Notes under the pieces: model-generated | Seen by the model: the letters and a program-made list of their open reading frames with translations, nothing else | What the model was told of the DNA's origin: nothing | Databases searched by the model: none | Virus record (IMG/VR): IMGVR_UViG_3300032221_000294 | Coordinates: 1-64,000 of that record | From: a virus | Taxonomy: Duplodnaviria; Caudoviricetes | Direction: 5' to 3' (one strand) | DNA: 64,000 bases | In this document: one piece after another, positions 6,715 to 57,240 of the stretch | Numbering within the stretch: the stretch's first letter is position 1 | Layout of the letters: every line of letters starts with the position of its first letter | Translations under genes and position numbers: made by a program

Positions 6715-6867
6715 TTAGTGGGCCATCAATGCGTACACTTCCTCAGTCGTCAGTCCGCCAGACTGAAGAACCGCCTGCAGGATTTCCTCCGCTCTCTCCT
6801 CTGCTTCGTCAGTTCCTTTTCGGACGAGTTCTTTCCGTTGAATCATCCTCTTTAAGTTTTCGCTCAT
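6715..6867 (-). CDS. 50-aa helical protein coupled to kinase (candidate immunity)
   Basis: ATGA overlap with the kinase stop; MSENLKRMIQRKELVRKGTDEAEERAEEILQAVLQSGGLTTEEVYALMAH. Confidence 0.65.
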   Translation of the reverse strand: MSENLKRMIQRKELVRKGTDEAEERAEEILQAVLQSGGLTTEEVYALMAH

Positions 6868-7688
6868 TGTAATCTACCAAGTTCTTGAATGTAATCTTCC
6901 CCCAGACGGGCTCTTTTGTTTTTCGCTGCTTGACTGGTTCCTTGAATTTCCCCGTATTTGTCAAGGTAGCGATTCACCAAACCAACGTAGGGATCATTCG
7001 CAAGTTCAGGGTTTTTCCAGTTAACCAGGCCTCCGATCTTGGCCAGATCTTGCATGACTCGAGCTGGCTGCCGAGAGGTAGGAACACTCAGACCGTAATC
7101 TACGAGCTGAACATTGTTGCCACTCACAATGAACTGGAGGGCGTGAAGATCACCGTGAGCGTAACCCAACTTGTGCAGGTCACGAATCGCCGCCGCCGCT
7201 TTCTTCGCCTGGGAAGCATTCATGACAGGCTCACCTTCCCCTCGAGAGTAACCTGCCCACAGAGTTTTTCCTTTGGCCGTTGCCATCTCGATGTGCTCGG
7301 CGGAACTAGAATAGATCTTCGGACTATGCCCTAGCTGACCCATTCGGGTGGCTAATTCCAGCTCAAACTCCCCAAATTCCCCCTTCTTCCCATCTTTTCC
7401 AACCAGCAATTCTTTAACAACACGCTTGCCGTCTGGACTGATTGAAATTTTTCCGTAGTTACCTTGATTGATTGGTTTCCACTTGTCGTATCCTACTTTA
7501 GTCGAGGAATTTTCGAATGTTCGACGATTTCTATCATACGCCTTCGACATTCTGTCCAGGAGCTCCGCCGTCTTGCTAAGCTGCCCCGAAGACAAAAAAG
7601 CGACCCGACAAGACCGCTGAGAGGCGATACAAGTCGAGCCGCAACTTTTTCCGCGAACGCAACGTTTTTTACTCCCGGCTTTGCGCAT
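6864..7688 (-). CDS. Ser/Thr-type protein kinase with N-terminal 4-Cys tag
   Basis: QGNYGKI, VVKE, HGDLH, VDYG; tag CVRGKSCGSTCIASQRSC. Start placed at ATG 7688, downstream of GGGTAAAA 7710-7717. Confidence 0.8.
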   Translation of the reverse strand: MRKAGSKKRCVRGKSCGSTCIASQRSCRVAFLSSGQLSKTAELLDRMSKAYDRNRRTFENSSTKVGYDKWKPINQGNYGKISISPDGKRVVKELLVGKDGKKGEFGEFELELATRMGQLGHSPKIYSSSAEHIEMATAKGKTLWAGYSRGEGEPVMNASQAKKAAAAIRDLHKLGYAHGDLHALQFIVSGNNVQLVDYGLSVPTSRQPARVMQDLAKIGGLVNWKNPELANDPYVGLVNRYLDKYGEIQGTSQAAKNKRARLGEDYIQELGRLQ

Positions 7689-7711
7689 CAGGTTTGTACA
7701 TCTGAGTGGTT

Positions 7712-8443
7712 TTACCCGTAGCTCGCAATAATACCCCAACCTGTTCCGTCGCCCTCTACCGTCCACCGCGACTTGAGAAGGTCGCGACTGTACTTTACGC
7801 GATTGCCATTTGTTGAAAGGTAGGTGCCGGTGGCATTGTTAATCTCCCCCCATGGATCGTTCACCACATACCAAGAACCACCAGGCGCTTTCGTGTCAAC
7901 TTCCTTACCGATTACAATGATCCAATGCCCTCCACCAGAAGGTGCGGTGCTTGGTCCTTTGTGCAGTATACCAACAGGAACTGGAATTCCACGGGCTAGC
8001 AGAGAGTCTAACGTTGAAAAAGTGAGGCTAGTGGAAAATCGTGAACTGACACCAAAGTGCTTTAGTGTTTGAACTTGAACAGCAGCATCCGTGGTGTCGC
8101 CACGCTTGAATACTTCCCTGATGTAATCATCGTCGCTTTTTATCGAGGTGGGTTTTAGAAACTTGCACAGCATCGCGCATGACGAGCTGAAGCATGTGCG
8201 TGAAGCGTCCCGGTAGTTGTCCCGTTGTGAGTAGTAGGGAACGTTGAGAACGGATGGTACGCCAGGGGCGTTTGTGTAAGGGGCTCGGTGAATTCGCACC
8301 CAATTAGCTTCGTCGGTTAATAACTCAGGCTTGATTGCTAGAATTTCTTTATACAAGTCAGCATAAGCGGCCCGGTGCTTAGGGTTAGCTGGGTCAGCGA
8401 ATTGGGCAAAGTCAAAGAACTTTTTGGAGTCGAAAGTCGCCAT
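7712..8443 (-). CDS. C39-like cysteine peptidase, probable endolysin
   Basis: LNVPYYSQRDN...CFSSSCAM, GGGHWIIVIG, VVNDPWG. Confidence 0.8.
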   Translation of the reverse strand: MATFDSKKFFDFAQFADPANPKHRAAYADLYKEILAIKPELLTDEANWVRIHRAPYTNAPGVPSVLNVPYYSQRDNYRDASRTCFSSSCAMLCKFLKPTSIKSDDDYIREVFKRGDTTDAAVQVQTLKHFGVSSRFSTSLTFSTLDSLLARGIPVPVGILHKGPSTAPSGGGHWIIVIGKEVDTKAPGGSWYVVNDPWGEINNATGTYLSTNGNRVKYSRDLLKSRWTVEGDGTGWGIIASYG

Positions 8444-8446
8444 GAT

Positions 8447-8662
8447 TCACTTTTTGAAGAATGGTAGTTTGTTAATGATTTTCACGAGCGGTTTCAGAGT
8501 CGTAAGAAGAGCTTCAACACGACCAAGCGTGAGCAGAAGGAGGTCTAACTTCTTTTCGATTGAGTCAATCCGTTTCGTAATAGGCTCGAGACCCTGATCT
8601 AGTTCTTTTGCCAGAAAAGCACCAGGATCAGTCGTTGAATTGACGAATTTTTTAAGATCCAT
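8447..8662 (-). CDS. Small coiled-coil protein upstream of lysin
   Basis: Leucine heptads; GGGTAAA at 8703-8709 upstream. Confidence 0.6.
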   Translation of the reverse strand: MDLKKFVNSTTDPGAFLAKELDQGLEPITKRIDSIEKKLDLLLLTLGRVEALLTTLKPLVKIINKLPFFKK

Positions 8663-8703
8663 TTCTATCTGAGTATGCTTAGGATGGTTTTGTCTAGATA
8701 ACT

Positions 8704-8883
8704 TTACCCCTTCGACTGGTAAACTCGGCCCATAAGCTCCTCACCAAATACCCGAAGATCCTGGTTTTTCTCCATGTTGCCAGCCATGATTGCCATGCGG
8801 CCAACTTCCCCAGGACCATCGGTTTTCATTGCTTCCTGAACGAATGGGTCGGCGAGGAAGTCTTTGATCGTCTGTTTGTTCAT
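8704..8883 (-). CDS. 59-aa protein coupled to tagged protein (candidate immunity)
   Basis: ATGA overlap; MNKQTIKDFLADPFVQEAMKTDGPGEVGRMAIMAGNMEKNQDLRVFGEELMGRVYQSKG. Confidence 0.6.
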   Translation of the reverse strand: MNKQTIKDFLADPFVQEAMKTDGPGEVGRMAIMAGNMEKNQDLRVFGEELMGRVYQSKG

Positions 8884-9776
8884 AAGAAAATGTCACCTGC
8901 GTTTACAAATACCGAATGGGATGCGTCAAGGAGTTTGTCAAATCCCGGGGTCGCTTCCATTTCTCTGTATTTAGTTATAAATTTCTTAACATCTGGGGCA
9001 TTCACGCCACTGTCAGTGTCTGCATAGTACAGGTTCTTGACTGGTTTTGGTATGTCCCCACGGCTTAACATAAACCCAATGTCGCGAGAGAAATACATTG
9101 ATAGATCCCTGTCTGTAAGGGTAGAGTTATCCCCCCTCGCTTTTAGGGCTGCCGCCCTATGAACCATGTTCACCAGAGTTTCTTCGGCAACAGTTGGACT
9201 TTTCGGGCCTTCACCAATCCAGTTCCCGATTTTATCGTCCCCCCCTAAGAATTCATGAACGAGGGCATGTACATTGTCGTGACTCCAGCTTAAGGTATGG
9301 GGGGTTGCTTCAAGGCCCGCTTTCTTTCGCCACGATTCTGCTTTTTTCTCTACTTCGTATATGTCAACGTTCTTGCCGGCCATGACGAGGTCTTTTGACT
9401 TCGCCCCCTTGTCTTCAACGGGTTTCGTCTCCTCCGTCCCTTTACGACACTTGCCTCCGGTACCATACGCAGTTCCGTTCGGTCGTACACATCGTGTAAA
9501 GTCAAGCGTTTCACTATAGCTAACTGTTTGCTGTGGCTGCGCCGGTTGCTGAGTGCACTTAGGTTTCTTCAGCTTTTGTTGTTGCTGTTGGAGTTGAGGG
9601 TCCGGCTGCGAAGCCTGTACCACCTTGGGTTGCGGAGGCTGAGGTGGCTGCGGGGGTGGTTTGGGCTGCGGGGGTGGCTTGGGCGGGCATGGCTCTGCTG
9701 CCGCCTGCCCTGGCTCTGCGTAGAGCATGGACGAAACTGCGTCAAGCGCCTCTTGAGAGAATCCAGAGATGTTCAT
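8880..9776 (-). CDS. Tagged modular protein (GFS.EAL leader, P/Q linker, DFTRC..YGTGGKCRKG tag, HDxxH domain)
   Basis: Motifs shared with 10099..10992, 53119..53841 and 54660..55355. Confidence 0.75.
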   Translation of the reverse strand: MNISGFSQEALDAVSSMLYAEPGQAAAEPCPPKPPPQPKPPPQPPQPPQPKVVQASQPDPQLQQQQQKLKKPKCTQQPAQPQQTVSYSETLDFTRCVRPNGTAYGTGGKCRKGTEETKPVEDKGAKSKDLVMAGKNVDIYEVEKKAESWRKKAGLEATPHTLSWSHDNVHALVHEFLGGDDKIGNWIGEGPKSPTVAEETLVNMVHRAAALKARGDNSTLTDRDLSMYFSRDIGFMLSRGDIPKPVKNLYYADTDSGVNAPDVKKFITKYREMEATPGFDKLLDASHSVFVNAGDIFL

Positions 9777-10099
9777 CCTAACATTCTCATCCCTTGAACT
9801 TCTTTGCTACTTCCGCCCTGCGGGTTGCCTGGACCCCGTGGGTATGAAGCTGGTGACAGCATTTCGCTATCCAGGTTTTCCTTGAGCTTACCTTGATCGC
9901 CGGGCTGCTTTCCGCGACGTGAGTCAATATCCGCGTTCAAGTTGGTGTTCCGCTTGAACCACGGGTCAGTTTCATAGTTTTGTTTATTGACAGGACCGCC
10001 TTTTCCCGTCTTAAACTGTTTTTCCCAATTAGGGTCAGAAAACTCTAACATCGCCGTTACTTCTAAGAGTGCCTCAGGCGAGAAACCAGGAATGTCCAT
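9773..10099 (-). CDS. Small protein with GFSPEAL...FSD leader
   Basis: N-terminus aligns with that of 8880..9776. Confidence 0.7.
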   Translation of the reverse strand: MDIPGFSPEALLEVTAMLEFSDPNWEKQFKTGKGGPVNKQNYETDPWFKRNTNLNADIDSRRGKQPGDQGKLKENLDSEMLSPASYPRGPGNPQGGSSKEVQGMRMLG

Positions 10100-10992
10100 C
10101 AGTCGTTTCCGTAATTGTCTCTGATGAACTGCTCTTGAGCCTTTATCCTTTCGTCGTACATTTTCATGACATTGCCGATCATCTCTTCACCTGCCCGGCT
10201 ACCGAACTGCTTCTTATAGTCGCTGGCTTCCCTTTTGAGTTCGGCCAGACCGTCGATAGACATATTACGAGGCGACGTTCCGATCATCTGCCCGTTAGGG
10301 CGTCTCACATCTTCCTCGTCTCTTCTCTTTGGCATCCCCTTAGTAAGACTCCGAATTGTATCGGTAGTTGTTCCACCTAGCTTTTGACGAGCGTCTGCGA
10401 CCAGCGAAATAAAGTCGGTATTTGCAGGAACTCCTTGACGAATCATCTCGGCAATTCTTTTGCGATCTGAGTTAAACCTTTTGTCAGAGAGAACGTCTGC
10501 AGCGATCTTTTCGCTTTTAGACATCTTCGGTGCACCCACCGTGTGGCTCTTTCCTGAACTATCAAGAATCTTTTCGCCTTTCGGTAGCATCCCGGCGAGT
10601 TGCTCCATGACGTCCTTTTCGTCGTCGCTTACTTCAGTACCCTTGCGGCACTTTCCACCCGTGCCGTAGCGAGAGCCATTCGGACGCTCACAAGTGGTGA
10701 AGTCGTAGTTTCCAGTTAGCATTGCGGAAACTTCTTGAGCCACGTCCTCTGAGTAGCCCATTGATGCCAGGCGCTCAGCATGATCCGAGTTTTTTCCTTT
10801 TGATTTTCCAGCCATCGATAGTGCGATCGCAATTGCTTGATCTTGTGATTTTACCACTTTTCCTTCCTTGCCGCCTTTTCCGCGACCGCTATGTAAAGAT
10901 TTGGGGTCGTGATGCTTCCAGCGATGCATCACCTGACCAACCTCGTCCTTGTGGGCAGACATAGGATGGCCTTCGGGCAATTCCTTAGACAT
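10099..10992 (-). CDS. Tagged modular protein (DUF6496-like N-terminus plus DFTTC..YGTGGKCRKG tag)
   Basis: VGQVMH.WK...LHSG...KVVKSQDQAIAIALS; GGGTAAAA at 11015-11022. Confidence 0.75.
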   Translation of the reverse strand: MSKELPEGHPMSAHKDEVGQVMHRWKHHDPKSLHSGRGKGGKEGKVVKSQDQAIAIALSMAGKSKGKNSDHAERLASMGYSEDVAQEVSAMLTGNYDFTTCERPNGSRYGTGGKCRKGTEVSDDEKDVMEQLAGMLPKGEKILDSSGKSHTVGAPKMSKSEKIAADVLSDKRFNSDRKRIAEMIRQGVPANTDFISLVADARQKLGGTTTDTIRSLTKGMPKRRDEEDVRRPNGQMIGTSPRNMSIDGLAELKREASDYKKQFGSRAGEEMIGNVMKMYDERIKAQEQFIRDNYGND

Positions 10993-10994
10993 AA

Positions 10995-11213
10995 CTATTG
11001 ATCTAGATCACCTATTTTACCCTCAATTTCCTTGACATGATCTCGCAACTGAGTTACCTGGTGAGCTAATTTAGCCATGATCGTAAGCGCCTCTGTCAGA
11101 AACTCTTCGACCTCCTCCCTTGAAAGTTCGTGTAACCTTCGTCTAACGGAAAGCACACGAAACTCTGACTCAAGGGGAAACGGTTTAACTTCAAAGTTCG
11201 TCTTGGAGTCCAT
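10995..11213 (-). CDS. nblA: NblA-like phycobilisome degradation adaptor
   Basis: 72 aa; PLESEF.V....L..LSREE..EFL......M matches the NblA helix-loop-helix pattern (LEQQF...MS..QA..FL...M). Confidence 0.6.
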   Translation of the reverse strand: MDSKTNFEVKPFPLESEFRVLSVRRRLHELSREEVEEFLTEALTIMAKLAHQVTQLRDHVKEIEGKIGDLDQ

Positions 11214-11868
11214 GGGCTATTGAGCGAAGGTCAAAGAATTTTTCTGCGGCATACTCTTTCTCCTCCTCACTCATAAAATCCCCGTCCACGTATTTCATTA
11301 GCATCATCATCTCAGCGTCTGACAAAGCACGAATCTGACGTATGAGACTAGGGCTTAGCAGAGTTGCTTTATGCTCCTCGAAGTTGTAAACAAACTCGGG
11401 TGTGGCCCAGTCCTCGGGTGAACTATCGTAAGACACATGATAGTTGTTCTCGGACATCTCGCAGTTGAGAACTTTACTTTCGTCCAGTCCTAGAATCTCG
11501 GCGATTTCCTTGTAAGTCTTACCCTCTTTCACTAGGTCGGCTACCTTGTTCCGGTAGTTGGCAATCCAGCGCGGCGTCCGCACCATGCGGGAGTAATCCC
11601 GAAGGGCGTGTTGAATGTAACCCCGCGCAGTGTTCCACGCGTAAGTGCTATACTTCACGTTCATTTCGGGGCGGTAACGAGTTGCAGCAACGCACAATGC
11701 GAATTTTGCTACGGACTCTAAGTCCTCCCGTGTCAGTGAACCTGTGTGACCCCCGGTTAAACACTTTGCCCCGTAGGCAAGCCTACCTGCGATCCAAGTG
11801 TGATCTGTGACAAGTTTCTGTTGCTCAGGCGTAAGCCTTGGGTACTTTTTGTTGCGACGACGTGTCAT
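11191..11868 (-). CDS. Sigma-70 family factor, SigB/SigF-like
   Basis: EDLESVAKFALCVAATRY.P....KYSTYAW...GYIQHALRD.SRMVRTPR; HTH YKEIAEILG. Start placed at MTRRRNKK. Confidence 0.85.
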   Translation of the reverse strand: MTRRRNKKYPRLTPEQQKLVTDHTWIAGRLAYGAKCLTGGHTGSLTREDLESVAKFALCVAATRYRPEMNVKYSTYAWNTARGYIQHALRDYSRMVRTPRWIANYRNKVADLVKEGKTYKEIAEILGLDESKVLNCEMSENNYHVSYDSSPEDWATPEFVYNFEEHKATLLSPSLIRQIRALSDAEMMMLMKYVDGDFMSEEEKEYAAEKFFDLRSIAHGLQDEL

Positions 11869-11869
11869 C

Positions 11870-13798
11870 TTAGGCTTCACAGGGGATGCATTCAGCATAG
11901 TTTGTTGTCTCAGTTTCTTGGGGGAATTCGGCTTTTTCGGTGTGAGCCATGAAGTCATTATAGCCGCCAATGTGCTTCTTGTATAGCCAAAGTTGAGGAA
12001 CTGTCTTCCAAGCAGGGTTCCAGTATCCTTTCTCTTCGGCTTGCGTTTTTGTAATCTCCTCGTAATGAATTCCGTCAGCTGCTAACGCGGATTTAAGTTT
12101 GTCACACCAGGGGCAATCCTCTTTGGTTACAATAAGAGCAGGTACAACTTTCAAGTTTGTCAACAGGGACGAGGACTTCAGATAGTAGAGTGATTTGAGG
12201 TTCATCTTCCATGCTGACAAGTGCAATCGCATGATATACGCTGCATCCGACTCCGGGTCAACTTTCAGATTAAGGGACTGACCCTGACAAATATAGGGCT
12301 GGCGGTCAGACGCTTGTTTGATTAGTTCAAATTGGTCAATCTCCTGAAAAGTCTTGAAAATTTCCTTCTCAACATCGCTAAGGCAGTCAAGGTCTTGCAC
12401 ACTTCCTTTTGCCTTTAGTACCTGTTCCCAGATGCTGTCGTCTATTCCGCGGTCGCAGAAGAGTTTCTCGAGAACAGGGTTTTTACGTACGTAGGTGCCT
12501 TTCGCTTGTTTGGCTACGAAATAGTTGGAGTCGATTGGTTCAATACCTTGGCTAAAAGCACCTGAAATGACAGAGTTTGTCCGGGTGGGAGCAACAGCAG
12601 TAAGGTGAGTGTGGCGCATGCCGGATCCCACGCACCATTCAGGTTCGCCAAATCGTTGTGCCAGCTCTCGTGAGGCAATCTCGGCTTGCTCTCGCACCCA
12701 TTGATGCGTCTCGATGTTAAGTTGCCGAGCGCCTAAGGAAGCAAAAGGCAATCCACGTTTCTGGTACAGCGTATGCAGACCCATGGATCCAAGACCTAGG
12801 GCACGAGATTTTTCTGCAAAGCGGACTGAGCGACCGAGACCCACTTTGTCTTTTGCCTTACGAACGAATTCGCTAACGACCGCGTCAAGGAGGTGAATCG
12901 CGAGTTGGGGGACTGTACGTCCTGTAATAGGAGATTTCCACCCACTAAACTCGTCATACCGACTAAGGTTGAGGCTGCTAAGGACGCAGACGAACGAATG
13001 ATGCTCATCGGTGTGCAGGAAGATTTCTGAACAAAGGTTGCTTGTTTTGACCGAGAGGCTGCGTTCGGTGTAGCACTCCGGGTTTTGCCGATTTGCGTTG
13101 TCAATGAAAATAAGGTAAGGCGACCCAGAGATCATACGAGTCTTCAGAACTTCTCCAAAGAGCTCTTGTTTTTCCAGATCTCCCCCAATCATTGACTCCA
13201 CCCACTCGTCAGTGATTGTAAGAGCAACGTTCGAATCGATGAACTTTCTGGGATCACCCTTTGTGTGGTCTTTGGTTCGAAGAAGTTCTGGAACGTCGGG
13301 ATGATCGATCGGTAGGTAAATAGCGAAGGAGCCACGGCGGACACCGCCCTGTGACACAACGCGAGCACACAGATCGTATTGCTGCGCCCAAGGAACTATC
13401 CCCGTGGACTTTCCGCCGCCTGTGATTGGGGCACCCGCAGGGCGAACGTCGCCAAAATAAACCCCCACACCGCCACCGTTCTTACTCAGCTGCGCGACTT
13501 CCTTAAGGTGTGAGTATATAGAGCTAACAGAATCGCTAGGGTGTACACTATAGCAAGAAATTGGCAGGGCCCTTGAAGTCCCAAAGTTAGCAGCAACGGG
13601 AGAAGCCAAACCCAGCCACCCATTCCAAAGGCAAGTAAAAAGATCGTCAAAGAGGGTTTCATCTTCGTTAATCACAGAGGCGGCGCGAGAGACTCGCTGA
13701 AACATCGCACGGGGGGTTTCCCCAGGCAGCAGATAGCCTGCGGACAGAGTGTGCATTCCTTCGTTGGAAAGCCACTCGGGGGCAATAGGTTCGGTCAT
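11870..13798 (-). CDS. nrdA: Class I ribonucleotide reductase alpha with internal glutaredoxin domain
   Basis: PISC, GGGVG, QGGVRRG, SNLCSEI, VAPT, KSLYY, then CPWC..TVPQ..IGGY and terminal CIPC. Confidence 0.95.
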   Translation of the reverse strand: MTEPIAPEWLSNEGMHTLSAGYLLPGETPRAMFQRVSRAASVINEDETLFDDLFTCLWNGWLGLASPVAANFGTSRALPISCYSVHPSDSVSSIYSHLKEVAQLSKNGGGVGVYFGDVRPAGAPITGGGKSTGIVPWAQQYDLCARVVSQGGVRRGSFAIYLPIDHPDVPELLRTKDHTKGDPRKFIDSNVALTITDEWVESMIGGDLEKQELFGEVLKTRMISGSPYLIFIDNANRQNPECYTERSLSVKTSNLCSEIFLHTDEHHSFVCVLSSLNLSRYDEFSGWKSPITGRTVPQLAIHLLDAVVSEFVRKAKDKVGLGRSVRFAEKSRALGLGSMGLHTLYQKRGLPFASLGARQLNIETHQWVREQAEIASRELAQRFGEPEWCVGSGMRHTHLTAVAPTRTNSVISGAFSQGIEPIDSNYFVAKQAKGTYVRKNPVLEKLFCDRGIDDSIWEQVLKAKGSVQDLDCLSDVEKEIFKTFQEIDQFELIKQASDRQPYICQGQSLNLKVDPESDAAYIMRLHLSAWKMNLKSLYYLKSSSLLTNLKVVPALIVTKEDCPWCDKLKSALAADGIHYEEITKTQAEEKGYWNPAWKTVPQLWLYKKHIGGYNDFMAHTEKAEFPQETETTNYAECIPCEA

Positions 13799-15364: not shown

Positions 15365-15387
15365 GGTGGTTTGGAACAGGTAAGTTA

Positions 15388-15416
15388 AGTATAACAGAAA
15401 AAAGCACGCAGTAAAG
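15388..15416 (-). promoter_or_regulatory. Early-type promoter CTTTAC-N17-TATACT
   Basis: Precedes the glycosylase-nrdB-nrdA-sigma-nblA run. Confidence 0.6.
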
Positions 15417-15421
15417 GGCGG

Positions 15422-15622: not shown

Positions 15623-15762
15623 TTCCCTTGGCCCTTGTACCTACGTTGCTTAGGACGAGAGGGAGTCGCCGCCAGATTGGTGTTACGGCTGCGGCCCTGA
15701 GCACTCATTTTCGGTTTGCTTTGAATTACTTGGGCACCCGCCGATGATTTCTGTTTCGCCAT
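15619..15762 (-). CDS. Small basic protein (47 aa, ends RRYKGQGK)
   Basis: MAKQKSSAGAQVIQSKPKMSAQGRSRNT...; ATGA overlap with the next gene. Confidence 0.6.
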   Translation of the reverse strand: MAKQKSSAGAQVIQSKPKMSAQGRSRNTNLAATPSRPKQRRYKGQGK

Positions 15763-47451: not shown

Positions 47452-47613
47452 CTAAAGGTAGGCTCCGCCGATAATCGCGTCTTCGCTCACTTCACCCTTC
47501 TCTCGCAGCTTCATGGCCGCTTCAAGATACAGGTCTGCCTTTTCGCCCAGCTCCTGCCTGCGCTCCTTGTAACGTGACATCAGAGCGATGTACTTCTCGT
47601 CGTGTTTACTCAT
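47452..47613 (-). CDS. 53-aa helical protein coupled to kinase (candidate immunity)
   Basis: TGATG overlap; MSKHDEKYIALMSRYKERRQELGEKADLYLEAAMKLREKGEVSEDAIIGGAYL. Confidence 0.65.
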   Translation of the reverse strand: MSKHDEKYIALMSRYKERRQELGEKADLYLEAAMKLREKGEVSEDAIIGGAYL

Positions 47614-49502
47614 CAAACCCCCTCGTAAAGAATCGAGATGTACTTTTGAGCCTGTTCATTAGTTAGTTTAGTCCAGACCCCCTGCTCGTAAGTCTCCATT
47701 GGCGAACGAATTCCGTGATCCATCACCGTGGCAATGTCGTCTTTGGAGAAACCATCCCGAAGCATCGCGAATTGAACGTCAGCTTTGTTTTGTTGAACTC
47801 TGGCGAGAACGGGAGCTTTTTCTTCGAGGTCTTTTCGTGCCCTTTCTGTTGACACGGGTAGAGCACCAGATTTCAATCTTGACTCGTAAATTTCGAGGAG
47901 TCGGCCAGCCGTCCCATCCCATCGACGAAGTTGCCAGTCTCCTTGTCCCGCAGCACCCATACCTCTTGTTGCCGAACCACCTTGTGGAGGCATAAACACA
48001 CCCATCGCTTCGGCCAAAGCGGCTTTTGGCGAGTCTTGAGCAAGACCCATGTCAACGAAACGGGCTTTACCTTTGCGGTCTACAAGAACGTTGTCGATGT
48101 GCATATCATTGTGAGCGATGCCCATCCGGTGAAGTTTTGCCCTAGCAACCCAATATGCGTCGGCAACTTTGACTCCGCCGATTTCTTTGTCGGGTGCTTT
48201 TGAACCGATAGGGCTTCCTGCAACCACGCTCATCGCCACGCGACCAATTTTCGTACCGGCGTTATACTGCGAGTCACCGTCAAGTTGAGCAGCAAGAAGT
48301 TTTGGCCCAAGGTCAACTTTTCCAAGACGGTCAATCAAGTCGGCTTCAATTTTACCGACTTCGCCCCTCTTGATGGCGTTTCCTTTGTTTGGCTCACGAA
48401 GAACGGTCCCGTAAGCACCTCTTCCGAGAAGTTTTGACCCCGACCCATAGGAATCTTCCCAGCGGTAAGACTTGCTTCCGAGCTCACGGGAAATCCCTTT
48501 GTTTATCATGTCACCGTCATGATCGCGAGCGTCTTCACGAGCGTAACGAACGTTTCCAGTTGCTTTTGTTTGTGGGCCTTTAATCGCCTCTTCCACAACT
48601 TTGAGCCGATCAACCAGCTTGTTGCGAAGCGCACCCGGTTTTACCTTTTGAACTTGCGATTTTAAGTTATTCCGCAAATTCCAGGCTTCTCCGAGAAGTC
48701 CCTCTAAGTCACGTCCAACTTCCCTACGAGTTAGAGCACCAAGTCCGAGAACGGATTGAAGCTGTGCGACTTGTGATTTGATTTTGACTCGCCCACTATT
48801 GTCGTCAATCATCGAGATATATCTCGGCGATTCGCCCTTCAAGAGGCGTGAAATATCATCCATTAAATCCTCGTCGGCCACTGTTCTCTTTACGGGGAGA
48901 ACCGTCCTTGTTCTTGCGCCTGGTGACTTATCAAGTTGCCGTGGTGGCAGAACTAACAAAGGCTTCTCGCTCGGGGTTTCTTTTCTGCGAGCTAACTCTC
49001 GGTCAATTCTATCTTTGGTATCCTGTAACACCTCCTTTTTCCCTGCCGGTGCTACTGAGAGACCTTTTCGGAATTTAACAAGAGCACTCGTATCCCATGC
49101 TCCGTACAGCTCGTCGGGTTGATTTTTTGCGTCGACAGTGGGTTTTTCAAAGGCTCGTTTAAATACATCCCCTAAGTTTGTTTCCGCCTTCGGTGCAGCG
49201 GCACCCCTTGCCGGTATAACACCAGCAGCAACTAAACGTCGTTTCAGTTCCCGTGCATCCTCGCCTGCGCGAATGTTCCTGCCAAGTTCCTGACGAAATT
49301 CCTTCTTGATTTTTTCAAATTGGGCGGCGCCACCGCGCTTTCCGCCCGCAGCAGCGGCTCGGTAGAGTTCAACAACCCCCACCTCATCTGAGGCTTTATT
49401 GAGAATGTTATTTACAGCTGTAGGGAAGTTAAGTCGGCAAGATTTTGCATTGCTGATGCAACCAGCCCCACACGCTTTACTGCGGCTGCACCTTTTTCTC
49501 AC
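47613..49502 (-). CDS. 4-Cys-tagged protein with C-terminal Ser/Thr-type kinase
   Basis: CSRSKACGAGCISNAKSC; LGRGAYGTV, AIKR, HNDMHIDN, VDMG. Confidence 0.85.
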   Translation of the reverse strand: MRKRCSRSKACGAGCISNAKSCRLNFPTAVNNILNKASDEVGVVELYRAAAAGGKRGGAAQFEKIKKEFRQELGRNIRAGEDARELKRRLVAAGVIPARGAAAPKAETNLGDVFKRAFEKPTVDAKNQPDELYGAWDTSALVKFRKGLSVAPAGKKEVLQDTKDRIDRELARRKETPSEKPLLVLPPRQLDKSPGARTRTVLPVKRTVADEDLMDDISRLLKGESPRYISMIDDNSGRVKIKSQVAQLQSVLGLGALTRREVGRDLEGLLGEAWNLRNNLKSQVQKVKPGALRNKLVDRLKVVEEAIKGPQTKATGNVRYAREDARDHDGDMINKGISRELGSKSYRWEDSYGSGSKLLGRGAYGTVLREPNKGNAIKRGEVGKIEADLIDRLGKVDLGPKLLAAQLDGDSQYNAGTKIGRVAMSVVAGSPIGSKAPDKEIGGVKVADAYWVARAKLHRMGIAHNDMHIDNVLVDRKGKARFVDMGLAQDSPKAALAEAMGVFMPPQGGSATRGMGAAGQGDWQLRRWDGTAGRLLEIYESRLKSGALPVSTERARKDLEEKAPVLARVQQNKADVQFAMLRDGFSKDDIATVMDHGIRSPMETYEQGVWTKLTNEQAQKYISILYEGV

Positions 49503-50011: not shown

Positions 50012-50042
50012 GTCGAAAAGGAGACTTATACGTGATTTTACC

Positions 50043-50561
50043 CTATCTTGTGCCCTCTAGGGTCTTGCGGCCGATCTCGTTGATGGCCTGTTGCCGAGCC
50101 GAGCCGCTGGCATTTGGATTCGCTAAGGCCGCTGCTGATTGAGCAGGGGCTGCTGGTTGAACGTTTTTCGGTCGTGGCGATTGACTTGGTTTTACGGGTT
50201 TTGGACCCACTTTCTTTTCACCGGCGACTGAACCCCATTCAACAAGAACGGGTTTGCCACCTTTTACGGCCCAACCCATCCGCTTGCCGTTCACCATTAC
50301 GGGTTTGTTGCTCTTAACGTCCGAGCCCTGCTTCTTGGCTTCAGCTTCACCCGCTTCCTCTTGTTTGGTTTTCTTGCTGGAGTCGAAGTCCTTTTCACCG
50401 GTGCCGCCGCCAACTTTGCGGCAGACGCCGAATACCATCTTCTCGCCTTCTCCACAGCCTTGGCCGTCAGCGAAGTTCCAGTCGATAATTGTGTAGTGAA
50501 CACCTTCAATGAGGTGGTCAACTGAGGGAAAATTGAAATTGCTTTGCATGGGGATCACCAC
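50043..50561 (-). CDS. Basic late protein (FAD...C...GVCRK)
   Basis: Two-Cys module reminiscent of the YGTGGKCRK tag. Confidence 0.65.
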   Translation of the reverse strand: MVIPMQSNFNFPSVDHLIEGVHYTIIDWNFADGQGCGEGEKMVFGVCRKVGGGTGEKDFDSSKKTKQEEAGEAEAKKQGSDVKSNKPVMVNGKRMGWAVKGGKPVLVEWGSVAGEKKVGPKPVKPSQSPRPKNVQPAAPAQSAAALANPNASGSARQQAINEIGRKTLEGTR

Positions 50562-50866
50562 TTAACTTTGTTGGCCCAGTAGGAACCAGAGGAAGGACCT
50601 TTCGCGATGTTTTTTGCGTGCCGCGCTTTGAAAGCTTCGCGTCGCGCCTTGTAAGACTCCGACTCACCTTCTTTTTTCGGGGACCCTTTGACGCCAGCTT
50701 GACCGAAACGAATCAATTTTTCCTGACCGTCGTAACACGCTTTGACAACGTGGCTGTGTCCGCCTTGTGTGTCCGCCTGAGGCTTGTTACAAGCCAAGTC
50801 TGCCTTTTCGGCGTAGTCTCTACGAAACCGCTCAAGAACTCCCTCAAAGAAAGACCCCCACATCAA
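50555..50866 (-). CDS. DUF6321-like small basic protein
   Basis: KLIRFG..G...RR.AFKARH...S..YWA...W, after a WGSFFE...YAE leader. Confidence 0.65.
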   Translation of the reverse strand: MMWGSFFEGVLERFRRDYAEKADLACNKPQADTQGGHSHVVKACYDGQEKLIRFGQAGVKGSPKKEGESESYKARREAFKARHAKNIAKGPSSGSYWANKVKW

Positions 50867-51420
50867 CCTTCCTCCCCGAAGCGAATGAAATCACCGACGC
50901 TTGCCAGGGCGACTCCAGCGTTTGCAATCTTTGTAGCAGCCCACGGAGGCAGATTGTCTTCTTCGTCGAGCATATCGAGCATTATTTCGATCTTTTCTTG
51001 CGCAACACGAAGTTGGGTGATGATCATCCCGCCATTATTTTCACTGGACTGAAAAATTTCTGAGTAGGAGTTGTCGTTCGCTGAAGCATGCATCGCAAGT
51101 TGACCGTTTTTGTTAGCTGCCCTTTTAATGACTTCCATGCGGGGCATCCGAATCGGAACTCCTTCGTTCATCTGTGGGTTCTTTTCGTCACCTTCGCCTG
51201 GCTCTTCGGGCAGAAAGTTCGGTGTCATTTCTGCTGTGGCGATGTCACCTTCCCCATGTTTTGACTCGAGAGGAACGCAGTTTGGAACTGTTCGTCCGCC
51301 TTTCTTCTTCACGCCGACGGCGTGGTAGCCCTTCCAGCAGGCTTTCTTCAAGCACTCACGAGAATCTTCGGAGAACCCGAAACCTTCGAGTCTCTCCCAA
51401 TCGTAGTTGTTAGGGTTCAT
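50863..51420 (-). CDS. Modular cyanophage protein (CWKGY...VPNCVP and NLPPW..TKI modules)
   Basis: Each module is preceded by FSE or YSE. Confidence 0.65.
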   Translation of the reverse strand: MNPNNYDWERLEGFGFSEDSRECLKKACWKGYHAVGVKKKGGRTVPNCVPLESKHGEGDIATAEMTPNFLPEEPGEGDEKNPQMNEGVPIRMPRMEVIKRAANKNGQLAMHASANDNSYSEIFQSSENNGGMIITQLRVAQEKIEIMLDMLDEEDNLPPWAATKIANAGVALASVGDFIRFGEEG

Positions 51421-51682
51421 GATCTGTGATCCTCCGGTGTAGTAGATCTTTCTGAATGTCTTCGACCTTTTCCGACAACCGAATATGATCTTCCCGAAGA
51501 GTGTACTTGATTGGCAGGTCCGTTCTCAGGTTATCGAGAACCGACTCCATCTTCTCCATATGGCGGATAATAGTTCCAAAACGGTCGTCGATTCGCTTTC
51601 CATTTCGTTCAAGAACCCAGCCAATTCCGCTAACGGAGGTGACAATAGACGCTAGAATACTTAAGATAGCTACGGGTTCCAT
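51410..51682 (-). CDS. TM plus coiled-coil protein
   Basis: Start placed at MEPVAILS. Confidence 0.6.
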   Translation of the reverse strand: MEPVAILSILASIVTSVSGIGWVLERNGKRIDDRFGTIIRHMEKMESVLDNLRTDLPIKYTLREDHIRLSEKVEDIQKDLLHRRITDHEP

Positions 51683-51683
51683 A

Positions 51684-52391
51684 CTACTCCGGCAAACCTG
51701 ATTGACCTGAAGCAAGCCGATCTTTCACGGATTGCGGTAAGCCCGACTCCCAGCCGTTCTTCTTCGCGATGCGAATGATGCTAGCCATAATTTTGCGAGG
51801 ATTTTTTCCTCGCCCTACCGAAGACCAGGCGGCAGCAACGTCTTCCGGGCTCGAGATTGGAAAAGACATATCAGGGCCGGCAAATTCACCCTTGACTGCC
51901 CCGGCTTTGAGCTCTTCGCGCTTTCCGGTGCTCCACTCGCGGTACTCGGCTGCTTTGCGTTTCTTGTCACGGCAAACTGGGCAAGATCCTCCGCATTCGC
52001 ATTCGGCCATTGCGAAAGGTTGCGCAATTGCGAGAAGCTCGGTGTCCTGAGAATCGCCCTCGGCGAACCCGTACTCGGCCCTTTTCATTTCCTTAAACGA
52101 AGCCATCCGAGATTTCTTGCGGTCGAAAATCTCTTTCATGGCCTTATTGCCATCGCAATTTTCGTTGTAATTTCGGTTGACGAGACTAGTACGCTTTTCG
52201 CGATTTGCAGCGTTCAACTTTAGAACACTTTCGTTGTGGTGAGACATTCCACCGGTAATGTCGGGAGACCATTTCTTACCGGAGGCGTTCATTTCTTTCA
52301 ACCTGTCTACGCTAATTGCGTTCGAGGCGTTGATGTTACCGCCTACACCAGGAAGCGAAACGTCGGAGAAATCTAGACGGGATCCGTACAT
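51684..52391 (-). CDS. Late protein with Cys cluster and C-terminal FPI...DV.AA...GR domain
   Basis: CECGGSCPVC; GGGTAAAA at 52417-52424. Confidence 0.65.
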   Translation of the reverse strand: MYGSRLDFSDVSLPGVGGNINASNAISVDRLKEMNASGKKWSPDITGGMSHHNESVLKLNAANREKRTSLVNRNYNENCDGNKAMKEIFDRKKSRMASFKEMKRAEYGFAEGDSQDTELLAIAQPFAMAECECGGSCPVCRDKKRKAAEYREWSTGKREELKAGAVKGEFAGPDMSFPISSPEDVAAAWSSVGRGKNPRKIMASIIRIAKKNGWESGLPQSVKDRLASGQSGLPE

Positions 52392-52428
52392 ATAGGAGGC
52401 AGTGGCAATACTTTCCTTTTACCCTTTA

Positions 52429-52746
52429 TTAGGGACTCTCCGATTCGTTGGTGGTTTTGCGACGACGAGTTACTTGCTCGACCTCTGCACCGGCAGCAGG
52501 TTCTGCGGGAACTAAAAGGGCCAGCAGGGTAGTTAATGCCAGTTTGCCAGTTTCGGCGAAGCTTGAGTTCGCCTGAGCGCAAACTAAGTTTGTTTTCTCC
52601 AGTTCGGCTGGGCTGCTTGAAAGTTTGAAACAGGTGGCAAACTGTGCGCCAGTGGACGCGAATTGAACTATGAAGATAGCAACGAGGCTTCGAATCAGAA
52701 AGCGGCGCTCGTTGAAGCTACTCGTAGTCTTCGTCAGCAGGCTCAT
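52429..52746 (-). CDS. Two-TM small membrane protein
   Basis: Two hydrophobic segments. Confidence 0.55.
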   Translation of the reverse strand: MSLLTKTTSSFNERRFLIRSLVAIFIVQFASTGAQFATCFKLSSSPAELEKTNLVCAQANSSFAETGKLALTTLLALLVPAEPAAGAEVEQVTRRRKTTNESESP

Positions 52747-53080
52747 TGTCCTCTTCCATTGAGAGTTCGCTTAGAATTTCATTGACAAGGGCGTCAACCT
52801 CGTCTTCAGTTAGTTCCTCTTCCTCGTCGGACTCTTCCTCCTCGTAGTAGGATTCCGGTTGGAAGGGTTGCTTCAGATCGTCATCGGGACCTTTTCCGCT
52901 CGGATAGCGCCAAAGGCCAGTATGCTCGATCCAAGGGGAAGTGTTTGAGATTTCGCCAGCAGGGAGACCGGTTCGGGTGTCCATATCCTGGTCTTCCGGA
53001 GTCATCAGTTGAGCGGCATACGCAGCGCGGAATGCTTCAACGGCGTCCATGTCGAAATCGCCACCAATTCTGTTGGTCAT
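52718..53080 (-). CDS. Acidic late protein
   Basis: GDFD.DAVEAFR leader; GGGTAAAA at 53109-53116. Confidence 0.6.
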   Translation of the reverse strand: MTNRIGGDFDMDAVEAFRAAYAAQLMTPEDQDMDTRTGLPAGEISNTSPWIEHTGLWRYPSGKGPDDDLKQPFQPESYYEEEESDEEEELTEDEVDALVNEILSELSMEEDNEPADEDYE

Positions 53081-53118
53081 TTGTTAGTTGTAATGGAACT
53101 TGAAGAAATTTTACCCGC

Positions 53119-53841
53119 TCAGGCCGCCCCGAAAAACCGGTAATTCCCCTCGTCGTCCTCGTAAATAGATCCCTCGTAAGCGTCTGTCCCCCTAGTAATT
53201 GCCTCGACGTCTTTGTCGGTCCACCCCAACACTTTCTTCAGAACTTTTTTTGGTACCGTAGCTGCAAGATCATCGTAGGAGGCGTTTTTGTCAACGTATT
53301 TCTGTAATTTCGGGTGCTCCATAACCCTTTCGATGGCCTCGTCAACTCTTGATGGTAATCCAGCCTTGGCGAATTCGCCGAGTGCTTCTTGCTTTCTCTT
53401 CTTTCCCGTATCCTTGGTCACACCCCCTGGCCCGTAAGTGTTATTTTTATGCCCGTATAGACTTGACTTGTACGCGTCAGCTTCTCTGCGTCTTTCCCTT
53501 TCACCGGGCGTCATATTCCCCCTGGTATCGCCCTTCTTATAAGGTTCACGCGCACGACCAGCAGCGTTCGCTGCGAGTTGGTCATACATGGCTTTTCTTT
53601 CAGGTGTTTGATTCTTTTTCTGACGTGCCAGTTTCGCTGCTCTTTCCGCTACTTTGGCTGCTGCGCCTTTGGTGGATTCTACACCTTTGCGGCATTGCCC
53701 TCCCGTGCCGTAGATAGACCCGTCGGGTCGCATACATCGGGTGAAGTCGTAGCTCTCTCCCTCGGAGAAATCCGCAGATTGTGTTTGTGAAACCATCTCC
53801 GAATACTGGAGGAGAGCCTTTTCTGAGAAAGAACCTAGCAT
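53119..53841 (-). CDS. Tagged modular protein (GSFSEKAL...DFSE..YDFTRC..YGTGGQCRKG)
   Basis: First ~55 aa homologous to 54660..55355; own GGGTAAAA at 53865-53872. Confidence 0.8.
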   Translation of the reverse strand: MLGSFSEKALLQYSEMVSQTQSADFSEGESYDFTRCMRPDGSIYGTGGQCRKGVESTKGAAAKVAERAAKLARQKKNQTPERKAMYDQLAANAAGRAREPYKKGDTRGNMTPGERERRREADAYKSSLYGHKNNTYGPGGVTKDTGKKRKQEALGEFAKAGLPSRVDEAIERVMEHPKLQKYVDKNASYDDLAATVPKKVLKKVLGWTDKDVEAITRGTDAYEGSIYEDDEGNYRFFGAA

Positions 53842-53872
53842 GATACTAAAGTAATCTGCTCAAGTTTTACCC

Positions 53873-54319
53873 TTAGCGTTTCTTGATCTTGCCCGAGATA
53901 TCTTGCCCCATCTTGCTATTGCCCATGAGCTTTTCTTCGTACTCTTTAACTTCCTTTTTGACATCTGCCTTGAGTTTACCTTCCTGAAGCATTTTTTCCT
54001 TCTTAGACTCAAGGATTTCAGGGTCGTAGGGGGCATTCTTCTCTCGCTCTTTCTTCGCCTTTTCCTTGCCCTTCTGCATTGTTTTCGCAGTTTGCTCACG
54101 CTTGGCAAGTTCTTCTTTGTGAACGAGTTTCCCTTCTTCGTCAAACTTGTGGTCTTTTGGAAGCTCGGGGGGAGTGTACTCTTGGTGAATTTCCTGCGCC
54201 AGGCGATCAAGAAGTTGGTCGTACGAGTCACGCAGGCGCCGTCTGCAAACGCCGGCAGCAGCCACAGTCATCGGGCCACAGGGAATCCTGTGCTGAGTAA
54301 TTTCTTCGAGTGCGTTCAT
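53873..54319 (-). CDS. Lys/Glu-rich protein (C...GVCRRR)
   Basis: Start placed at MNALEEIT. Confidence 0.6.
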   Translation of the reverse strand: MNALEEITQHRIPCGPMTVAAAGVCRRRLRDSYDQLLDRLAQEIHQEYTPPELPKDHKFDEEGKLVHKEELAKREQTAKTMQKGKEKAKKEREKNAPYDPEILESKKEKMLQEGKLKADVKKEVKEYEEKLMGNSKMGQDISGKIKKR

Positions 54320-54320
54320 G

Positions 54321-54656
54321 TTAGGCTCCTTTTCTTTGGCGAATGCGACCGTCGTTGTGCTCGTCGTAGTGAACTCCCTTCCTCTTTTCCTTGCGGGGGT
54401 TTGAGTCCTGACGATTTGTTTCCCGCATCGACTGAACCATTGTGTCGCGCATGTTGCGAAGTTGCTCACGCGGCAGAGTGCAATGATCGCTGTCACGATA
54501 GGAACGATACCAGCGGCAAACTTCCGACGGGTCGTCAGCCTGGAGCATCATATTCCACACCCCGAGTGCTTGCGCATCGGCTAGGGTGCCAGGCTTGAGT
54601 TTGGCCTCAATTTCGTGCCGCTCGGGGCGATTGAATCGGGTGTCTTTGCGCATCAC
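54321..54656 (-). CDS. Hypothetical protein
   Basis: Tightly spaced ORF. Confidence 0.6.
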   Translation of the reverse strand: MMRKDTRFNRPERHEIEAKLKPGTLADAQALGVWNMMLQADDPSEVCRWYRSYRDSDHCTLPREQLRNMRDTMVQSMRETNRQDSNPRKEKRKGVHYDEHNDGRIRQRKGA

Positions 54657-54659
54657 TGA

Positions 54660-55355
54660 TCAGAGTTTTCCTATTTGCCATTTAATACCGACGTCACTAG
54701 TCCACGGATGCACGACTGTATATCCGTCTTTGGTTTTCTTTACTTGAAAATTATCGCCTCCTTGCTTCTTATTAAGAGCGTTAGCAAGCTCTTGAGCTTT
54801 GTTTTTGGGGAAAATTAAAGAATCGGACGAACGCTCTGACGAAGTTCCTTTTGAACTCTTCTGTCCCTTACCCGCAAGCTGAGCCAGAGCATTTTTAGCA
54901 TAGCGGGAAAAGGAACCTTTGGCCCCATCTTCTTGATAACGATCTGAAGCATTATCGAGAGCACTAACGAGTTTTTGTTTTTGTTCGGGGTTTAATTTTA
55001 GGCCCAGTGCTTTTTCTAACTTGGGTGCGAGTGTCTCCCCGGCATACCCAGGGGTGGAATCTGACTCTCCGTCCTCAAAGGCCATAAACGCTTTGTCCCA
55101 AGCCTTATACAAACCATCTACGATTTTGGCAGCATCTTTCTTTGGTCCACCCGACGCTCTCTTCGCTTTTTCTTCAATTTCTTTAGCGCCTTCCGTGCCC
55201 TTTCGGCATTTACCCCCAGTGCCATACGCCGACCCGTCGGGTCTCACGCAACGGGTGAAGTCGTAGGTATATCCTTCAGAGAAATCCGCAGCTTGAGTCT
55301 GAGCCGCAAGTTCTGCGAAGTGACGCAAAGCGTCTTCAGAAAAATGACCGTTCAT
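54660..55355 (-). CDS. Tagged modular protein (GHFSEDAL...DFSE..YDFTRC..YGTGGKCRKG)
   Basis: Start placed at MNGHFSED, 21 nt after GGGTAAAA 55377-55384. Confidence 0.8.
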   Translation of the reverse strand: MNGHFSEDALRHFAELAAQTQAADFSEGYTYDFTRCVRPDGSAYGTGGKCRKGTEGAKEIEEKAKRASGGPKKDAAKIVDGLYKAWDKAFMAFEDGESDSTPGYAGETLAPKLEKALGLKLNPEQKQKLVSALDNASDRYQEDGAKGSFSRYAKNALAQLAGKGQKSSKGTSSERSSDSLIFPKNKAQELANALNKKQGGDNFQVKKTKDGYTVVHPWTSDVGIKWQIGKL

Positions 55356-55392
55356 GGCTGTAAAATAATATACAAGTTTTACCCCCTTGGTG

Positions 55393-57240
55393 TTACAAAT
55401 CTGCGATTTGTTGAAGTACCTCGTCTTGAATGTCTTTGATCTTCGGCGCAAGGAAATCAATTAACCCTGTCCTCGTTGAATACTGCGTTTCTCGAACTCT
55501 ATTTCCTTTGTATTTTTCTTCGTTTAAGTCGAGAAGTTTCCTCTGAGCCCCGCTCAAAATTGAGCCCATCTTCATCAAACCCCCGTTATCTCCCTTTTCC
55601 TGGAGCTCAGCGACTTTATCCGCTAGAGCTTTACCGACGGACGCGCCTCCTACATCTTTTCCGTACCAGTACAGAGGTTTGGGCACAGAACGTAAACTCC
55701 CCTCCTTGGCTGACTGGATTCCAATAGCAACGGTTCGTGACGAATCTGTCCACGCGGAGACAACTTTACCCATTAGATTTGCCCGGTCTCCCGCGTTAAG
55801 CTCATTAGTGGGGATAAGGGCAATAGACGCTAACGCTTTTTGAGGATCTAGAATCTTGTCTAAGATGTCATCCCCGATTGTTTTCTTTGCTGAGTTTATT
55901 TCTTCCCGTTTTTCGTGGAAAAGTTTACCGTCTTCCGTGAGTTTTCCGTTTCCGTCAAAAGTTATCATCCGTGGCTTACCCGAGGTCTTTGAGGTGTTGG
56001 TGTTGAACCAACCTGCGGTGTTAGTTGTTAGCAGGTAATCCGGACTGCCTTCCCCTTTCCCTCGGTTTATTCGAGAGTTTGTTAACGACCAGTTGTTCCC
56101 GATATTGGCATTTGCACCTGCGACCCCCGCTGGTATCAAGTGCTCTAAGTCCACGCTCAACAAATTCAGTTTCTCCCCCGTGTATACGTCCTTGAATCCT
56201 GACTCCATAGCGATCTTCATAATTAAGAAAGATTTTGCCTTATCCTCCTCTGCTTTTGACATCTTCTTCCCCGAGGGAATTACGTCTCCCTTCGGAGTTA
56301 CAGATCTGTAGGATCCAGGAATTTCTGAACTTCCCGCACTCTTCAGATAGGTGAAAACTTGGGGGGGCATCAGACCCATCATAAAATGGACCTCTGAGTC
56401 TTTGACGTCCTGATTTCTGTACCATTTTGCGAAAGGTTCTAGTGCCTTGGAAAATTCTTCAGGGTTCTTATATTTACCTGTCTTATAGTTGTCATAGACA
56501 CTCGTAAGTTCTTTAAATTTGTCTTGACGCTCTTTCGAGGCCATTCGTTCTATGCCCTCGTTAGAAACAACTGGGGCTACATCTTTCCTCCCGTATAAGA
56601 CGTCAAAAGCCTGACTCACCATGTCCCGCATTTTTTGCCTGCGCTCTTTAGGGTCGGGGTAATCTTTGGTTAAGCCGTTGATCCCCTCCCGAAGAAAAGA
56701 AGTCCTTTCTTTCAACTCAGTTTGAACTTTCCCCGTTCTAAATTCTTTTGGCAGGGTGTCTTCCGCCAGTTTTCCTTTCACAAGCGAGTTAGAGAAACCT
56801 GTGTATTGTTTAAATCGTTTTGCGGCTTCAGCGGTGGTCAAGTTTCCTTGAGCAATTTCTGATTTCAAGTAATTTCGTACTTTAGTGACTTCTCCTGAAA
56901 TTTCTGCAGGTAACTGCAGGATGCAGTCGTTGCGGTAGAAAATGCAGGAAGCCCCACAAGATTTACCTTTCTTACACCGGTCACGTTTTGCGGAGAAGCT
57001 TTTTCTTTGAGCTGCCGCATTCATTGCGCTCTCTTTCTTCGCTTCTGTGATCACTTTCTTTCCCCCGTCAGACGTCTTTTTAGGGGACCCACCTGTTTGA
57101 GGGGAAGCCGCTGGTTTACCGGGCAGAGGTGAAGATTCACCTACAATCCCTTGTCTTTGCCCAAGGCGCTCTACTTTTGCATCATCCCCTTGCATATTGC
57201 GGGAGTCTGCAAAATCAAACCAGCGATACTTACTTCCCAT
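55393..57240 (-). CDS. 4-Cys-tagged protein with HNH nuclease domain
   Basis: CKKGKSCGASCIFYRNDC; DVYTGE.L....DLEHLIP.......N...N....N..IN..KG. Confidence 0.75.
   Translation of the reverse strand: MGSKYRWFDFADSRNMQGDDAKVERLGQRQGIVGESSPLPGKPAASPQTGGSPKKTSDGGKKVITEAKKESAMNAAAQRKSFSAKRDRCKKGKSCGASCIFYRNDCILQLPAEISGEVTKVRNYLKSEIAQGNLTTAEAAKRFKQYTGFSNSLVKGKLAEDTLPKEFRTGKVQTELKERTSFLREGINGLTKDYPDPKERRQKMRDMVSQAFDVLYGRKDVAPVVSNEGIERMASKERQDKFKELTSVYDNYKTGKYKNPEEFSKALEPFAKWYRNQDVKDSEVHFMMGLMPPQVFTYLKSAGSSEIPGSYRSVTPKGDVIPSGKKMSKAEEDKAKSFLIMKIAMESGFKDVYTGEKLNLLSVDLEHLIPAGVAGANANIGNNWSLTNSRINRGKGEGSPDYLLTTNTAGWFNTNTSKTSGKPRMITFDGNGKLTEDGKLFHEKREEINSAKKTIGDDILDKILDPQKALASIALIPTNELNAGDRANLMGKVVSAWTDSSRTVAIGIQSAKEGSLRSVPKPLYWYGKDVGGASVGKALADKVAELQEKGDNGGLMKMGSILSGAQRKLLDLNEEKYKGNRVRETQYSTRTGLIDFLAPKIKDIQDEVLQQIADL

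Follow-up and report, generated by a model that had tools for sequence, protein, structure and literature searches.

A four-cysteine module shared by two protein kinases and an HNH protein of a cyanomyovirus, a candidate adaptor on virion-carried enzymes

The phage proteins that enter the cell with the DNA, and the way in which they are selected, are known for a few model phages only. In phage T4, the capsid targeting sequence is a short N-terminal element on IPI-III and Alt, unrelated proteins which are packaged in the head and then injected; it is ∼10 residues long without cysteines, is recognised by the prohead core and is cut off by the prohead protease. Effectors carried in virions have also been described as MuF toxins and polyvalent proteins (Iyer et al. 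2017, PMC5512222). Closest to the system described here, three kinases of Synechococcus phage S-CBWM1 (APH-, ChoK- and Rio2-like) are reported in purified virions by PMC10665884, which cites Xu 2018. We have followed up a preliminary description of the first 64,000 nucleotides of the viral record IMGVR_UViG_3300032221_000294 (hereafter the window) by analysing a module of ∼50 residues with four cysteines (Cys), referred to as the tag, which is carried by two protein kinases and an HNH protein. With a probability of roughly one half, we read the module as a portable adaptor marking enzymes that travel in the virion and enter the host together with the DNA.

A search of all six frames of the complete 99,520-bp genome for the tag pattern C-x2-[GS]-K-[SA]-C-G-x2-C-I-x5-C gave exactly three matches, all on the minus strand, relative to none in 100 shuffles of the genome, the bare spacing C-x5-C-x3-C-x6-C being observed five times versus a mean of 0.18 per shuffle. 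The four cysteines of the first copy, CVRGKSCGSTCIASQRSC (7608-7661), occupy residues 10-27 of a 274-residue open reading frame (ORF; 6864-7688), those of the second, CSRSKACGAGCISNAKSC (49437-49490), residues 5-22 of a 629-residue ORF (47613-49502), and those of the third, CKKGKSCGASCIFYRNDC (56923-56976), residues 89-106 of a 615-residue ORF (55393-57240). Alignment of the copies delimits the complete modules, composed of a basic stretch, the four cysteines and a helix, at 7530..7688, 49359..49502 and 56845..57000 of the minus strand, the third being delimited also by an AlphaFold model of the module and following a leader of ∼88 residues with an F-D-F-A motif. All copies are as written in the preliminary description, which had reported one Cys module on three dissimilar proteins; beyond the tag, the three have nothing in common except that the first two both have a kinase fold. 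The tag is kept in orthologues from 13 viral contigs, and paralogous tags within one genome have only about one third of their residues in common.

The short tagged kinase (6864..7688, minus strand, ATG at 7688), a Rio/Bud32-like protein of 274 residues encoded directly after the endolysin gene, contains the motifs GNYG, VVKE, HGDLHALQ and DYG, the Asn of the catalytic loop being replaced by Q. It matches Bud32 of NCBIfam at 8.9e-8, and a Foldseek search with its AlphaFold model (predicted local distance difference test, pLDDT, 69.6) retrieved kinases only, from 6e-8, namely the RNase L kinase domain, Rio2 and Bud32/PRPK; in the full model a long helix and a low-confidence linker lie between tag and kinase. 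The long tagged kinase (47613..49502, minus strand), 629 residues with a kinase domain at approximately residues 355-500, begins at a GTG which overlaps the stop of an upstream gene of 170 residues. Its motif set is complete (GRGAYG, AIK, HNDMHIDN and DMG, the catalytic loop HNDMHIDN and DMG being read at 48045..48113, minus strand), its matches to Pkinase of Pfam (3.5e-5) and to a PHROG kinase (2.7e-5) are sub-threshold, its domain matches kinase domains in 14 Synechococcus phage records, and orthologues with 34-79% identity are found on five viral contigs. By these motifs, and for the short kinase by its fold model, both proteins are assigned to the eukaryotic-like kinase superfamily, which is defined by a Gly-rich loop, VAIK Lys, HxDxxxxN, DFG Asp and a bilobal fold; their Pfam scores are below the gathering cut-offs.

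The third tagged protein (55393..57240, minus strand, 615 residues) is encoded directly after PhoH and the terminase large subunit (TerL) and has a central Cas9-type HNH domain. Its catalytic core, DVYT ... DLEHLIP ... NNWSLTNSRINRGKG (56053..56190, minus strand), was located by family alignment and profile and has the D-x-[DE]-H ... N ... N-x-x-K arrangement of the Cas9-type HNH_4 (beta-beta-alpha-Me) fold; the family profile matches Cas9 HNH domains at 1.4e-7, the single-sequence Pfam match being only 0.014, and catalytic H367 and N383 are invariant among the 22 aligned sequences of the family. Motifs, profiles and the AlphaFold model uphold the earlier assignment of the cargos as kinase, kinase and HNH nuclease. 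Members of the HNH family also have F-[DN]-F-[AS] near the N-terminus (57208-57219 in the window), followed by a variable Gly/Pro-rich leader and then the tag.

Relatives of these proteins are reported in virions. S-CBWM1, which by gene order and protein similarity is the nearest isolated relative of the window virus, encodes five tagged proteins, gp106, gp113, gp161, gp162 and gp174. Of these, gp113 and gp162 are homologues of the window kinases, the short kinase being similar to gp113 along its full length (6e-16), and the HNH protein is similar to gp106 (2e-37) and gp174 (3e-17), the latter an annotated virion structural protein whose gene adjoins the major capsid gene. By their GenBank names the three virion kinases are gp162, gp161 and gp113, the tags on which were found in this analysis. 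Two of these genes would need an annotation fix, as the GenBank starts of gp113 (L062:8581-9531) and gp161 (L061:4077-4949) lie inside or just after the tag and cut it, and in-frame ATGs upstream give the tag-including N-termini MSKRC... and MGKNC.... In the cyanosiphovirus vB_AphaS-CL131, ORF048 contains a hydrophobic segment and a lipase module behind each of its four tags, in ORF047 a tag is joined to a lipase, and the tag of ORF044 is a variant. These proteins all appear in the list of virion proteins detected by liquid chromatography-tandem mass spectrometry, ORF048 with 54.6% coverage and 105 peptides (PMC6293099, SI Table 5). Tag-bearing homologues are therefore reported, for S-CBWM1 through a citing paper, in purified virions of two unrelated cyanophages. 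By predicted gene content, the context of the tagged genes is structural, and the three tagged proteins are probably packaged in virions of the IMGVR_UViG_3300032221_000294 phage as well.

The cargo attached to the tag varies widely. A profile search, which the preliminary description had proposed, was carried out with a profile built from seven tags against 1.84 billion representatives (E ≤ 0.001) and detected 411 proteins (clusters at 50% identity) of 60-2215 residues with 1-10 copies each, the tag being joined to many unrelated C-terminal partners and not to one fixed cargo. Among the best 150 of the 411, one N-terminal tag is followed by at least 100 residues of cargo in 96, 2-10 tags are present in 35, and 18 are short. 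In this same set, a kinase hidden Markov model identified 22 kinases, and the HNH family accounts for 18-19 proteins; a figure of 81 kinases out of 150, obtained by single-linkage clustering, was discarded as an overcount whose links ran through the common N-terminal region. ADPrib_exo_Tox matched 5 of 108 tagged proteins, and most others are without a Pfam assignment. Overall, the partners comprise kinases, HNH proteins, ADP-ribosyltransferases (ARTs), alpha/beta-hydrolase lipases, an LRAT-type domain, DnaJ and many unknown domains, the first 60-75 residues being 40-70% identical across unrelated C-termini such as those of an ART, an HNH-family protein and kinases. One further C-terminus, that of P0105, appeared ART-like from motifs read by eye and was rejected, as Pfam and PDB searches gave no confirmation. 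Giant proteins of 1,100-2,200 residues contain 2-4 tags together with lipase-type hydrolases, LRAT, DnaJ and a HipA-like kinase, a tag preceding each module. In IMG/VR, 55 distinct tagged ORFs are spread over 45 loci, where three or four of them frequently stand in tandem, and the order TerL-PhoH-tagged gene occurs in most of the loci. The module is real, conserved and promiscuous, and the cargo folds are as stated above.

Alignment of 50 viral copies resolves the module, over ∼50 residues, into a Lys/Arg-rich stretch, a Cys hairpin, a hydrophobic element [ILV][VI]x[FL]P and an amphipathic helix. The four cysteines (C-x5-C-x3-C-x6-C) and one Lys are invariant, a Gly and an Ile nearly so, and an AlphaFold model of the module with a mean pLDDT of 89.5 places the hairpin at residues 12-21 and the helix at residues 32-51. 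Four invariant cysteines within 18 residues on a beta-hairpin resemble zinc knuckles and ribbons or disulfide-stapled hairpins, from which the module differs in having no CxxC pairs and no match to solved structures. It is uncatalogued, being in neither Pfam, NCBIfam nor the PDB: scans with Pfam, NCBIfam and PHROG left the tag itself unmatched, even in proteins with 3-10 copies, and the PDB contains neither a sequence match by profile search nor a fold relative by Foldseek or a wide VIA-align search (best Z 2.5). A search of the ESM Atlas with the module returned only unnamed clusters, below 0.8, and a text search for peptide words of the tag found only histone peptides.

The cysteines may be stapled by a metal or by two disulfides. 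In locus L004 (5974-7857), an orthologue of the long kinase with 48% identity, Cys1 is replaced by Lys and Cys3 by Phe, while Cys2, Cys4, the rest of the module and the kinase are kept. This paired loss, the geometry of the hairpin and the secretion of the bacterial relatives described below incline us toward two disulfides rather than one zinc site, a tentative preference drawn from one lineage and from secondary structure. The same observations are those on which a stability or oligomerisation element would be proposed, in which a stapled hairpin and helix serve extracytoplasmic survival and the link to virions is a consequence, not a cause. Loss of Cys1 together with Cys3 and retention of Cys2 with Cys4 is what two disulfide pairs predict, the AlphaFold model places Cys2 and Cys3 on opposite strands of a tight hairpin, and in bacteria of many phyla signal-peptide proteins end in the motif, accompanied by five further cysteines. 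Such a role is nevertheless improbable, since it leaves unexplained both the tag ahead of every enzyme module in the giant virion proteins and the conservation of the N-terminal 60-75 residues while the cargo changes.

The bacterial relatives were detected with a degenerate DNA pattern, which gave at least 120 matching stretches in genomes of many phyla. In these (L063-L142), the motif is the C-terminus of small signal-peptide proteins and is embedded in a longer nine-Cys pattern, CC-x2-C-x2-GK-x-CG-x-SCI-x5-C-x4-GCAC[DN]G, an ending which is absent from Pfam; it stands alone or after SNase, MBL-fold, Ig-like and Excalibur domains. These partners, together with charge, bring in the possibility of a small basic knuckle which binds nucleic acid and is not an assembly signal, tethering enzymes to phage DNA, and so co-packaging them passively, or to host DNA or RNA, and so choosing their target. 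Module and flank are strongly basic, with 9-13 Lys plus Arg versus 3-5 Asp plus Glu per ∼50 residues, and HNH partners in phages are paralleled by secreted SNase, MBL-fold and Excalibur partners in bacteria. However, most bacterial carriers are tiny secreted proteins without a nuclease, the tag is also found on lipase modules with membrane-like segments, there is no likeness to known DNA-binding folds, and the Cys spacing lacks the CxxC of a knuckle. We consider this explanation unlikely.

We return to the adaptor reading, in which the module is portable and marks enzymes carried by the virion. For incorporation, the module may bind a scaffold, core or tail component, or DNA; behind it follow a flexible linker and then the enzyme, here a protein kinase in two cases and a Cas9-type HNH nuclease in one. 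Once injected, the kinases, the nuclease and ADP-ribosyltransferases would have the host or competitors as their targets. Several observations weigh against this reading. Virion presence is taken from homologues in S-CBWM1 and CL131, not from the phage's own particles. A homologous kinase of S-CREM2, gp14, has a virion-protein annotation and no tag, and none was detected anywhere in the genomes of S-CREM2 and S-B68; packaging in general can therefore proceed without the tag, as virion kinases of T4-like cyanophages are untagged. The same motif ends secreted bacterial proteins and therefore is no phage-specific address. The L004 orthologue keeps its kinase though Cys1 and Cys3 of its tag are lost, and searches by PDB profile, Foldseek and VIA-align gave no sequence or structure match of the module to any characterised targeting signal. 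Thus, of the capsid-loading and delivery signal put forward in the preliminary description, the variety of cargos and the presence of homologues in virions are retained, while loading by the tag is not borne out, in view of the untagged virion kinase gp14 and the occurrence of the module outside phages. That the module itself mediates incorporation into the particle is accordingly put forward only tentatively. Doubtful is the broader proposal that the ∼50 residues are a self-sufficient transferable label, enough to load any fused protein into the virions of a wide range of aquatic phages, both myoviruses and siphoviruses, that its presence reveals the full injected enzyme set, and that the bacterial relatives are the source of the fold.

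The untagged proteins have a head of their own. In T4-like cyanophages of cluster C, represented by S-CREM2 (gp12, a Cas9-like HNH protein, and gp14, the virion kinase; L183:4205-9347) and S-B68 (L001:1535-3475), the virion kinase and the Cas9-like HNH protein are without the tag and have the common N-terminal motif GL-x3-G-x-G-x-[YW]-x-D-x2-T-[GN]-K-[IV]. Comparison of these sequences hints that shared heads on co-packaged enzymes may be a recurring solution.

The preliminary description had also proposed a polymorphic effector system. A shared module with variable enzymatic cargo is present, the conserved N-terminal region and variable enzymatic C-termini being those of polymorphic toxins, and small conserved ORFs of 50 and 54 residues lie directly after the two kinase genes. 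On these grounds, a true toxin-immunity system could be directed against competing phages or bacteria, with the small genes that follow neutralising the toxins in the producer. What is missing is a small gene coupled to the HNH gene, any known trafficking or secretion domain, a MuF (SPP1 gp7 / Mu gp30) domain, which Pfam and PHROG scans of the three proteins did not detect, and a cassette array of orphan C-termini. The 50- and 54-residue ORFs are dissimilar by BLAST, and recent cassette swapping is unsupported because the paralogous tags, only about one third alike in one genome, are too diverged. A strict toxin-immunity system is therefore unlikely, to the point that we give this explanation hardly any weight.

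Both small ORFs are on the minus strand, at 6715-6867 (50 residues) and 47452-47616 (54 residues), with 78-96% identity in relatives and 36-52% in distant contigs; position 6715, at which the range in the preliminary description began, is part of the former, a separate ORF. A second shared motif, DFTRCVRP[DN]G[ST]AYGTGGKCRKGTE, occurs on the minus strand at 9444-9491 (ORF 8880-9776) and 55203-55250 (ORF 54660-55460), in carriers which are otherwise different. ORF 54660-55460 lies directly after the tagged HNH gene, and the motif is also found in related viral loci.

The assembly consists of a single virus record of 99,520 bp with 49.8% guanine plus cytosine, the minus strand holding 107 of 119 called ORFs. 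A PHROG scan identified psbA, ribonucleotide reductase, primase, tape measure, tail fibres, endolysin, PhoH and TerL inside the window, and a head-tail adaptor, baseplate wedge, major head protein, head maturation protease, portal, tail sheath and DNA polymerase outside it. The virus is a cyanomyovirus of ∼100 kb. Megablast of 20 kb against isolated phages gave no match; S-CBWM1 has its gene order in common with the window. In the PHROG scan TerL lies at 59602..61335 and a PhoH-like gene at 57246..58184, both on the minus strand, and ∼30 related viral loci have kept the order TerL-PhoH-tagged gene ... tagged kinase-tail fibre. In two unrelated contigs, tagged genes adjoin MuF-like minor head, portal and Neck1 genes.

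The sequence GGGTAAAA is present in 21 copies in the whole window versus 2.7 expected, 20 of which are on the coding strand, typically 22-25 nucleotides ahead of a start codon (for example 7710-7717, 50036-50043 and 58095-58102). The copy at 7710..7717 (minus strand) is 22 nucleotides upstream of the ATG of the short kinase, and the genes for the long kinase and the HNH protein are second genes in units led by the motif. It leads all three units, as had been claimed, while their designation as late units is retained only as presumptive. As the copy at 58095-58102 falls inside the listed PhoH ORF, the real start of PhoH is probably further downstream.

If the module marks injected enzymes, this recognisable handle would let the injected set, including kinases, ADP-ribosyltransferases, nucleases and lipases, be read from the genomes of uncultured cyanophages. 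Catalogues would gain a widespread small domain, present in at least 411 clusters at 50% identity, and the module would be a candidate for directing foreign proteins into cyanophage particles.

The T4 capsid targeting sequence is alike in being a short N-terminal element on unrelated proteins, with a cargo that includes an ADP-ribosyltransferase. It has no sequence likeness to the module, which in contrast is a folded Cys4 unit of ∼50 residues found also in tail-region proteins and in bacteria. MuF toxins and polyvalent proteins (PMC5512222) are alike in comprising virion-carried kinase, ART, nuclease and peptidase effectors and giant multi-domain relatives, and some tagged genes adjoin MuF-like minor head genes; the three window proteins differ from them in having neither a MuF nor a zincin peptidase domain. 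The word cysteine is nowhere in that paper, and the module is therefore not among the domains it describes. Nearest are the cyanophage virion kinases of S-CBWM1, S-CRM01, S-TIM5 and S-CREM2 (PMC10665884), the window kinases being homologous to those of S-CBWM1. The passages of that source consulted here make no mention of the four-Cys module; virion packaging, reported there for the kinases, is a prediction for the window proteins. To these systems the present analysis adds the link of the tag to published proteomics, its secreted bacterial relatives, the untagged homologues in virions and the degenerate copy in L004.

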